From: a virus
DNA: 64,000 nt
IMG/VR virus record: IMGVR_UViG_3300017565_000003
Strand: one strand, 5' to 3'
A program made the translations under genes and the position numbers. Shown here piece by piece: positions 61,068 through 61,442 of this stretch (within the stretch, counting starts at the first letter, position 1; each line of letters begins with the position of its first letter). A model generated the notes under the pieces. It saw only the letters and a list, made by a program, of their open reading frames with translations, had not been told where the DNA came from and did no database searches.

Positions 61068-61356
61068 ACAATCACTCCTAATTCATATTCAAAAGTTGTC
61101 GTCCTTCTGTGATTACATCATATCATGTTTAGTTTATCTTTGTAAAAGGTCAAAATAAGGTATATATGGATCATTTGAGGAACTTATGATATAATTTAGA
61201 AGTATTACGTGCTACTCCAATACCACTAATACAGGAAGCTCAGAGATGGGCTTCTTTTTTGTTTCTAAGATTAAAATAGAATTTCCATTTTAATGTGTTT
61301 TTTATTTGTTAATAAATGTTAAAATTAAATCAACAATAGGAAAAGGAATGATCCTA

Positions 61357-61392
61357 ATGGTATTGAACAAAGGAATTAAACCAGGAGGCTAA
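61357..61392 (+). CDS. 11-aa peptide MVLNKGIKPGG
   Basis: AAAGGAATGAT RBS, extended -10 TGTTAAAAT upstream, terminator hairpin over the stop. Confidence 0.5.
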   Translation: MVLNKGIKPGG

Positions 61393-61442
61393 AAGCCTTC
61401 TTATTTATTTGATAAAAAGTTGGATAAATTTTCATTTAATAC

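Follow-up and report, generated by a model that had tools for sequence, protein, structure and literature searches.

A leaderless 11-codon phage micro-gene ending in GIKPGG as a candidate forged arbitrium signal

Arbitrium serves as a model of viral communication, and each phage type is considered to have its own private signal. The signaling protein AimP is 40-50 aa long, carries a Sec signal peptide and is encoded directly after aimR, and the peptide is cut outside the cell and re-imported. The mature signals include EIKPGG in Wbeta and TIKPGG in the J5a clade, and removal of the first residue of EIKPGG reportedly abolishes activity (PMC8878798, PMC11945551). An AimR has been shown to be bound and switched by arbitrium peptides other than its own, so that a close peptide of one phage can act on the receptor of another; this cross-talk concerns secreted AimPs of complete systems, and the study describes no receptor-less or leaderless emitter (bioRxiv 10.1101/2025.10.13.681337). 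Outside arbitrium, SIP (8 aa, Rgg/RopB), SHP and XIP arise from tiny ORFs that give the mature or nearly mature RRNPP-type ligand without a Sec leader; these peptides are hydrophobic, exported and streptococcal, and their genes lie beside the receptor gene. Phage morons are autonomous promoter-gene-terminator units with differing neighbors in related phages, and they usually encode proteins of ordinary size.

The micro-gene described here was found in IMG/VR virus record IMGVR_UViG_3300017565_000003, of which a stretch of 64,000 nucleotides was analyzed (hereafter the window), and it encodes the peptide MVLNKGIKPGG. Like AimP, it is phage-borne in the phages of Bacillaceae, and the relatives of the window phage use KPG-type AimPs. 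The C-terminal hexapeptide GIKPGG differs at a single position from EIKPGG and TIKPGG, and is identical in five of six residues both to these published signals and to the products of AimP genes. In contrast to AimP, the micro-gene comprises 11 codons, encodes no signal peptide, is not accompanied by a receptor gene in 98% of the contig and shows no DNA homology to aimP genes beyond the 15 bases of the motif; hence, of the properties of an aimP gene, it has the C-terminal peptide of a known class, but neither the position right after aimR nor the Sec leader and the length of ~40-50 aa. With SIP, SHP and XIP it shares the tiny ORF without a Sec leader, yet its peptide is hydrophilic and no receptor gene is adjacent. 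The seven-codon members of its family (MGIKPGG, discussed below) encode a leader-free product, whereas the form in the window has five extra N-terminal residues. The autonomous organization and the differing neighbors in related phages resemble those of morons, although 11 codons fall well short of a protein of ordinary size. In full-text literature searches, the two arbitrium papers were the only ones with IKPGG, and no account of AimP-like genes without leader or receptor came up. Of the present findings, the 11-codon form, the fact that a cultured Metabacillus strain conserves it and the lack of AimR across 98% of the contig are new.

The micro-gene and its phage

The window belongs to a soil-metagenome contig of 162,659 bp (a 162.7-kb phage), which is present, whole or in parts, in public DNA runs from four soil studies; the runs with the contig are all soil DNA, and no RNA run is listed among them. 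The portal protein shares 63% identity with its counterpart in Geobacillus virus E3 and shows distant kinship to the portals of SPbeta and c-st. Together with Yom-like tail genes, the genes for YopX, YorE, YorH and YorP and a repressor of the MrpR (YopR) type, this identifies an SPbeta-like temperate phage. Its closest relatives among sequenced genomes are found in Metabacillus sp. Hm71, as a prophage (87% portal identity), and in Bacillus sp. Bva_UNVM-123, as a contig of 154 kb (74% portal identity). Elsewhere in the window (31983-33369, plus strand), a small HTH-like ORF is followed by a tubulin/FtsZ-family GTPase, and this TubR-TubZ-like pair suggests plasmid-like segregation or a PhuZ-type function. 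The early region encodes a homologue of Gad2 (anti-Gabija; L075 15246-16484), plus several DNA methyltransferases.

None of the gene callers reported the micro-gene, which consists of the following elements:

61317..61325, plus strand: extended -10 element TGTTAAAAT, read from the sequence, without a good -35; the same in the phage of contig L136, and present at the aligned position in Hm71
61342..61353, plus strand: Shine-Dalgarno (SD) site AAAGGAATGATC, its last base 3 nt ahead of the micro-gene start codon
61357..61392, plus strand: ORF of 11 codons (MVLNKGIKPGG) plus stop, from ATG 61357 to TAA 61392, read from the sequence; the peptide is kept in relatives
61383..61411, plus strand: terminator-like hairpin (61383-61401, 8 pairs) with a T-rich tract

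The duplex of the SD site with the anti-SD has an energy of -11.1 kcal/mol, compared to a weaker median of -9.3 kcal/mol for the long ORFs of the window, and ranks within the top 2.4% among all ATGs in the window by this measure. The extended -10 element at 61317-61325 was not called in a scan for -35/-10 promoters. The last two Gly codons of the micro-gene form the 5' arm of the hairpin, and the loop contains the stop codon. Folding of the hairpin alone is unremarkable (z = -1.9), and in two metagenome copies a C>T change in the 3' arm converts a G:C into a G:U pair. The four copies of this phage in metagenomes resemble each other too closely to be informative. The reading frame remains open upstream to ATG 61348 and further to TTG 61306 (28 aa); however, one metagenome copy has a 1-nt deletion, and hence a frameshift, in the upstream part, and the Hm71 prophage has GTG in place of ATG 61348, so that the start is placed at 61357. 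A signal peptide is absent in every reading, and a hydrophobic leader is missing even from the 28-aa stop-to-stop frame. The preliminary description of the locus, which was made from the sequence alone, is therefore borne out in that the extended -10, the ribosome-binding site, the ORF and the terminator-like hairpin all read as a mini transcription unit, and in that the upstream frame provides no export signal. Judged by these elements, the micro-gene is a self-contained unit of the moron type that brings along a promoter, a ribosome site and a terminator, and it is predicted to be translated.

The unit lies in an intergenic stretch of 450 nt that is bounded by a minus-strand SASP gene and by a 77-aa gene, an orphan for which no relatives were found; its neighbors are thus the SASP gene, a small RNA-like unit and the orphan gene, and no RRNPP or Rgg receptor gene adjoins it. 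The 77-aa gene has a strong promoter of its own 3' of the hairpin (TTGATA-17-TATAAT, 11/12), and the downstream gene is not the same in the window phage and the Hm71 prophage. At the DNA level, the micro-gene region and 19 kb around it had no match in phage and plasmid collections, tblastn with the 28-aa frame had no match either, the translations of the flanking 127-aa and 83-aa (61499-61750) ORFs led to no relatives in IMG/VR and the JGI metagenomes, and Rfam had nothing at or near threshold in the region.

Several observations concern the surroundings of the unit. The phage has two SASP genes of the alpha/beta type (PF00269; window 60870-61067 and L268 15185-15382, both on the minus strand), as is the case for sspC in SPbeta, and one phage SASP gene directly adjoins the micro-gene both in the window phage and in Hm71. 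Just upstream of the micro-gene, at 61186-61266 on the plus strand, lies a second mini unit with an extended -10 element (TGATATAAT), a transcript of ~65 nt that folds into two hairpins (MFE -18.6 kcal/mol, z = -2.8) and, at 61233-61256, a good intrinsic terminator; Rfam contains no match for this unit. At the corresponding position, Hm71 has another structured RNA of ~130 nt with its own terminator (L089 1340-1490). Near-identical promoter cores, CTTGATAAARGTAAAYTTATC and then TATAAT, occur at 50774-50794 and 61442-61462 of the window, so that the core downstream of the micro-gene has a single sibling there; this core is also kept in Hm71, 3' of the micro-gene, and may represent a phage-specific early promoter or operator.

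Conservation of the peptide and a family of GIKPGG micro-genes

The word IKPGG followed by a stop codon proves nothing by itself, since chance copies in IMG/VR (~57) outnumber the true aimP genes (10); per window, ~1e-3 such words are expected from a hand calculation based on the base composition of the window. What raises the micro-gene above chance is its conservation in Hm71, together with the existence of seven-codon genes and of a 27-codon gene with the same ending. In the Metabacillus sp. Hm71 prophage (L089), the same 11 codons are found in the syntenic position after the SASP gene. Only 3 of the 36 bases differ (AAC>AAT, AAA>AAG and TAA>TGA) and every change is silent, while the flanks have diverged by 32% (binomial P = 7e-4 for constraint on the micro-gene). 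The silent changes in the N and K codons fall outside the hairpin stem. The Hm71 unit has a stronger SD, an extended -10 element (TGCTAAACT) at the aligned position and a retained hairpin, whose loop differs and whose T-run is better; as in the window, this loop contains the stop codon and the Gly codons make up the 5' arm.

Phages carry a rare family of micro-genes for products with a GIKPGG ending and without export signal, and the present micro-gene is one of them. Membership was defined by a strong SD, an ATG, 0-20 residues and then GIKPGG-stop, without export signal and within a phage genome, all of which are found for the window gene; the six members are those of the window, Hm71 (L089), L136, L030, L139 and L204. 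A scan of IMG/VR for MGIKPGG-stop returned seven matches, compared to ~0.7 expected by chance (scaled from the chance IKPGG-stop matches in IMG/VR). Three of them are seven-codon genes (L030, L139 and L136) that begin 2 nt after a textbook SD, AAAGGAGGTGATC or AGGTGGTGATC, which was no part of the search pattern, and the remaining four are internal to a long ORF. The L136 gene has the same promoter element as the window gene (TGTTAAAAT) and a clean terminator with a hairpin that begins after the stop codon, and the L030 and L139 genes have no clear hairpin. The sixth member, L204, is a leaderless gene of 27 codons with SD and terminator on a 134-kb metagenome contig (Ga0180434_10000078; reverse strand, about 390-500). 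Its product is composed of three arbitrium-like units, ending in DPSTGG, DPSIGG and K-GIKPGG, and the gene may represent a variant of the family that carries several signals. A metagenome scan for GIKPGG preceded by M, K or I gave 76 matches, among which only L204 has an SD, the others being chance matches or lying inside long ORFs. K-GIKPGG has zero matches in IMG/VR, and a scan for an SD followed by M, any residues and KPGG-stop yielded no further true variant. Two other candidates were rejected, as the G392 match is a terminator and the match at G001:709013 lies inside a gene.

The anti-SD duplex energies of the five relatives (-15.6, -16.6, -22.8, -22.8 and -12.8 kcal/mol) are all stronger than that of the window gene. 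The six genes all specify the same hexapeptide but differ in their Gly, Ile and Pro codons and in the stop codon, although for the MGIKPGG members, which were found via a fixed peptide pattern, synonymous-only variation arises partly by construction. The genomic neighbors of the micro-gene vary between family members. The complete 38-kb phage behind L030 carries the micro-gene and has no AimR, and the Bva_UNVM-123 relative has an AimP ending in DPPMGG and no micro-gene. A search for conserved xIKPGG-stop micro-ORFs, proposed in the preliminary description as a check, has thus been answered by the silent-only changes in Hm71 and by GIKPGG-ending micro-genes in four further phage contigs, and on the sequence comparisons the ORF is very probably a genuine peptide gene under selection. 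Phage genes of only about 10 codons would accordingly be functional and yet escape every gene caller. An origin as a decayed aimP remnant was considered and rejected, since the ten true xIKPGG aimP genes have no homology to the micro-gene beyond the motif and the ORF has its own SD.

AimR receptors and the possible target of the peptide

The arbitrium background against which the locus was initially interpreted is correct: IKPGG-ending signals are documented by EIKPGG (Wbeta) and TIKPGG (J5a clade) (PMC8878798, PMC11945551), and the true xIKPGG AimPs in IMG/VR are 46-50 aa long, have a signal peptide and are encoded after aimR, as expected of secreted pro-peptides. The reported absence of AimR from the window likewise stands and extends beyond it, as PF22871 (AimR) was not found in the window or among any of the called genes at record positions 1-159,657 (98% of the phage contig), and tblastn with nine diverse AimRs had no match in the phage. 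In Hm71, a cassette of aimR, an aimP ending in TYKPGFGG and a 67-aa Cys-rich ORF is inserted between two gene pairs that are adjacent in the window phage (L092 1306-3004 in Hm71; L072 11626-12151 in the window phage, where the genes are ~180 nt apart). Because of this adjacency, the arbitrium cassette is an indel, and the window phage is the form without it. The AimP of Hm71 is encoded 13 kb from the micro-gene, and the L136/L141 phage encodes an AimP ending in LIPKPGG 4 kb from its MGIKPGG gene; another Bacillaceae prophage has an AimP ending in AYKPGIGG. Hence, the micro-gene stands alone, as originally claimed, in the window phage with no AimR nearby, but not in Hm71 or the L136/L141 phage, and since these two relatives have their own AimR-AimP pairs, self-regulation is as possible as jamming.

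The search for a receptor matching GIKPGG, also suggested at the outset, was negative: IMG/VR, a sample of 400 genomes from the host order and 24 genomes of the host genus yielded neither an AimP ending in GIKPGG nor an AimR to match. In the latter 24, KPGG-stop words occur at control-level frequency, with no AimP among them. The AimRs with KPGG-like peptides fall into at least three distant clades (20-30% identity), so that one peptide is unlikely to fit them all, and the known xIKPGG systems belong to phages of the B. cereus group, whereas the nearest host of the window phage is Metabacillus.

We consider the micro-gene product to be a cytoplasmic candidate ligand for KPGG-class AimR receptors, i.e., a case of signal forgery, with a probability of about 0.4. 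In favor of this reading are the coding constraint, the strong SDs of the family members, the 5/6 match to the Wbeta and J5a signals and the KPG-type AimPs in relatives, as well as the presence of the gene in an SPbeta-like phage without AimR, the known cross-talk by non-cognate peptides and the removal of Met before Gly. The estimate is held down by the missing GIKPGG-type AimP and AimR, the spread of KPGG-type AimRs over at least three distant clades and the Metabacillus host, and it is weakened further by the reportedly essential first position of EIKPGG, which here is a G preceded by MVLNK; position 1 of the hexapeptide may thus matter.

The peptide could also be real but have a target unrelated to arbitrium, for which a host RRNPP regulator (NprR or Rap type), some other protein of the host or one of the phage would be candidates: selection acts at the peptide level, the window phage and the L030 phage lack AimR, and no AimP or receptor of the GIKPGG type was found in the collections searched. 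We regard this as fairly unlikely, because it would reduce the match to the published signals, the KPG-type AimPs in relatives and the arbitrium-like repeats of L204 to coincidences. A true leaderless communication peptide, released independently of Sec as are SIP of RopB, SHP and XIP, re-imported by Opp and read as a population signal by the AimRs of related phages, is less likely still. Such signals are known for receptors of the RRNPP/Rgg type (Do et al., 2017, as cited in PMC12988980), and two relatives have both the micro-gene and AimR, but no exporter adjoins the micro-gene, the window phage has no receptor with which to listen, and the peptide is hydrophilic, unlike SIP or SHP.

Two further readings, a leader ORF and a locus without a functional peptide, we hold to be improbable. 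The ORF could be a cis-acting leader, such that a ribosome that has reached the loop-borne stop codon opens the terminator hairpin and permits read-through into the downstream genes (translation-coupled attenuation), which would agree with the placement of stop codon and Gly codons in the window and Hm71. However, the downstream gene has its separate strong promoter after the hairpin and differs between these two phages, and the peptide is the same in L136, where the hairpin begins after the stop, and in L030 and L139 with no clear hairpin. Lambda has minigenes only a few codons long (bar), and the locus might analogously act through peptidyl-tRNA drop-off, or it might be a small RNA or terminator, the G+C-rich stem of which happens to read P-G-G. 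Pro and Gly codons are indeed favored by G+C-rich stems in an A+T-rich genome, and chance IKPGG-stop words are common in large collections. Yet neither version explains why the N and K codons, which lie off the stem, show silent changes only, why a strong SD is present in six of six members, or why the hexapeptide remains the same with differing Gly codons, and hence tRNAs, at the last sense position.

If the product is indeed a ligand of KPGG-class AimRs, the peptide would be synthesized inside the cell and would act there. Met aminopeptidase takes off Met ahead of Gly, so that MGIKPGG of the seven-codon members would be converted to the exact hexapeptide GIKPGG. The window form would need trimming after the Lys, between MVLNK and GIKPGG, presumably by a cytoplasmic peptidase, and the Lys ahead of GIKPGG in both the window and L204 may mark the trimming site. 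GIKPGG would then fill the peptide pocket of KPGG-class AimRs, namely those for Wbeta-type xIKPGG and for the IPKPGG and YKPGxGG types of the relatives, and peptide-bound AimR would no longer activate aimX. As a result, a co-infecting, incoming or resident arbitrium phage would sense a saturating lysogeny signal and enter or stay in lysogeny. As AimR is absent from the window phage, the target would have to be another phage and the effect would hit other phages only, whereas in relatives with AimR the micro-gene could also pre-load their own receptor.

The wider proposal, that receptor-less micro-genes make a rival's arbitrium signal in the cytoplasm (with three signal-like units in one member) and thereby hijack the lysis-lysogeny decision of competing or resident phages, is more tentative and in our view somewhat doubtful. 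If true, it would add a new layer of phage-phage conflict via forged communication and provide the first natural signal forgery between viruses, by a phage that is itself unable to listen; a tool of seven to eleven codons would suffice to force arbitrium phages into dormancy.

With respect to the lysis-lysogeny switch of the window phage itself, a 762-aa phage histidine kinase (HisKA_3 + HATPase_c; L074 16551-18839) is encoded ~1.4 kb, or three small ORFs, downstream of a module with integrase-like, DndB-like and MrpR-like repressor genes. In a phage without arbitrium, this kinase may constitute an alternative sensory input to the switch.
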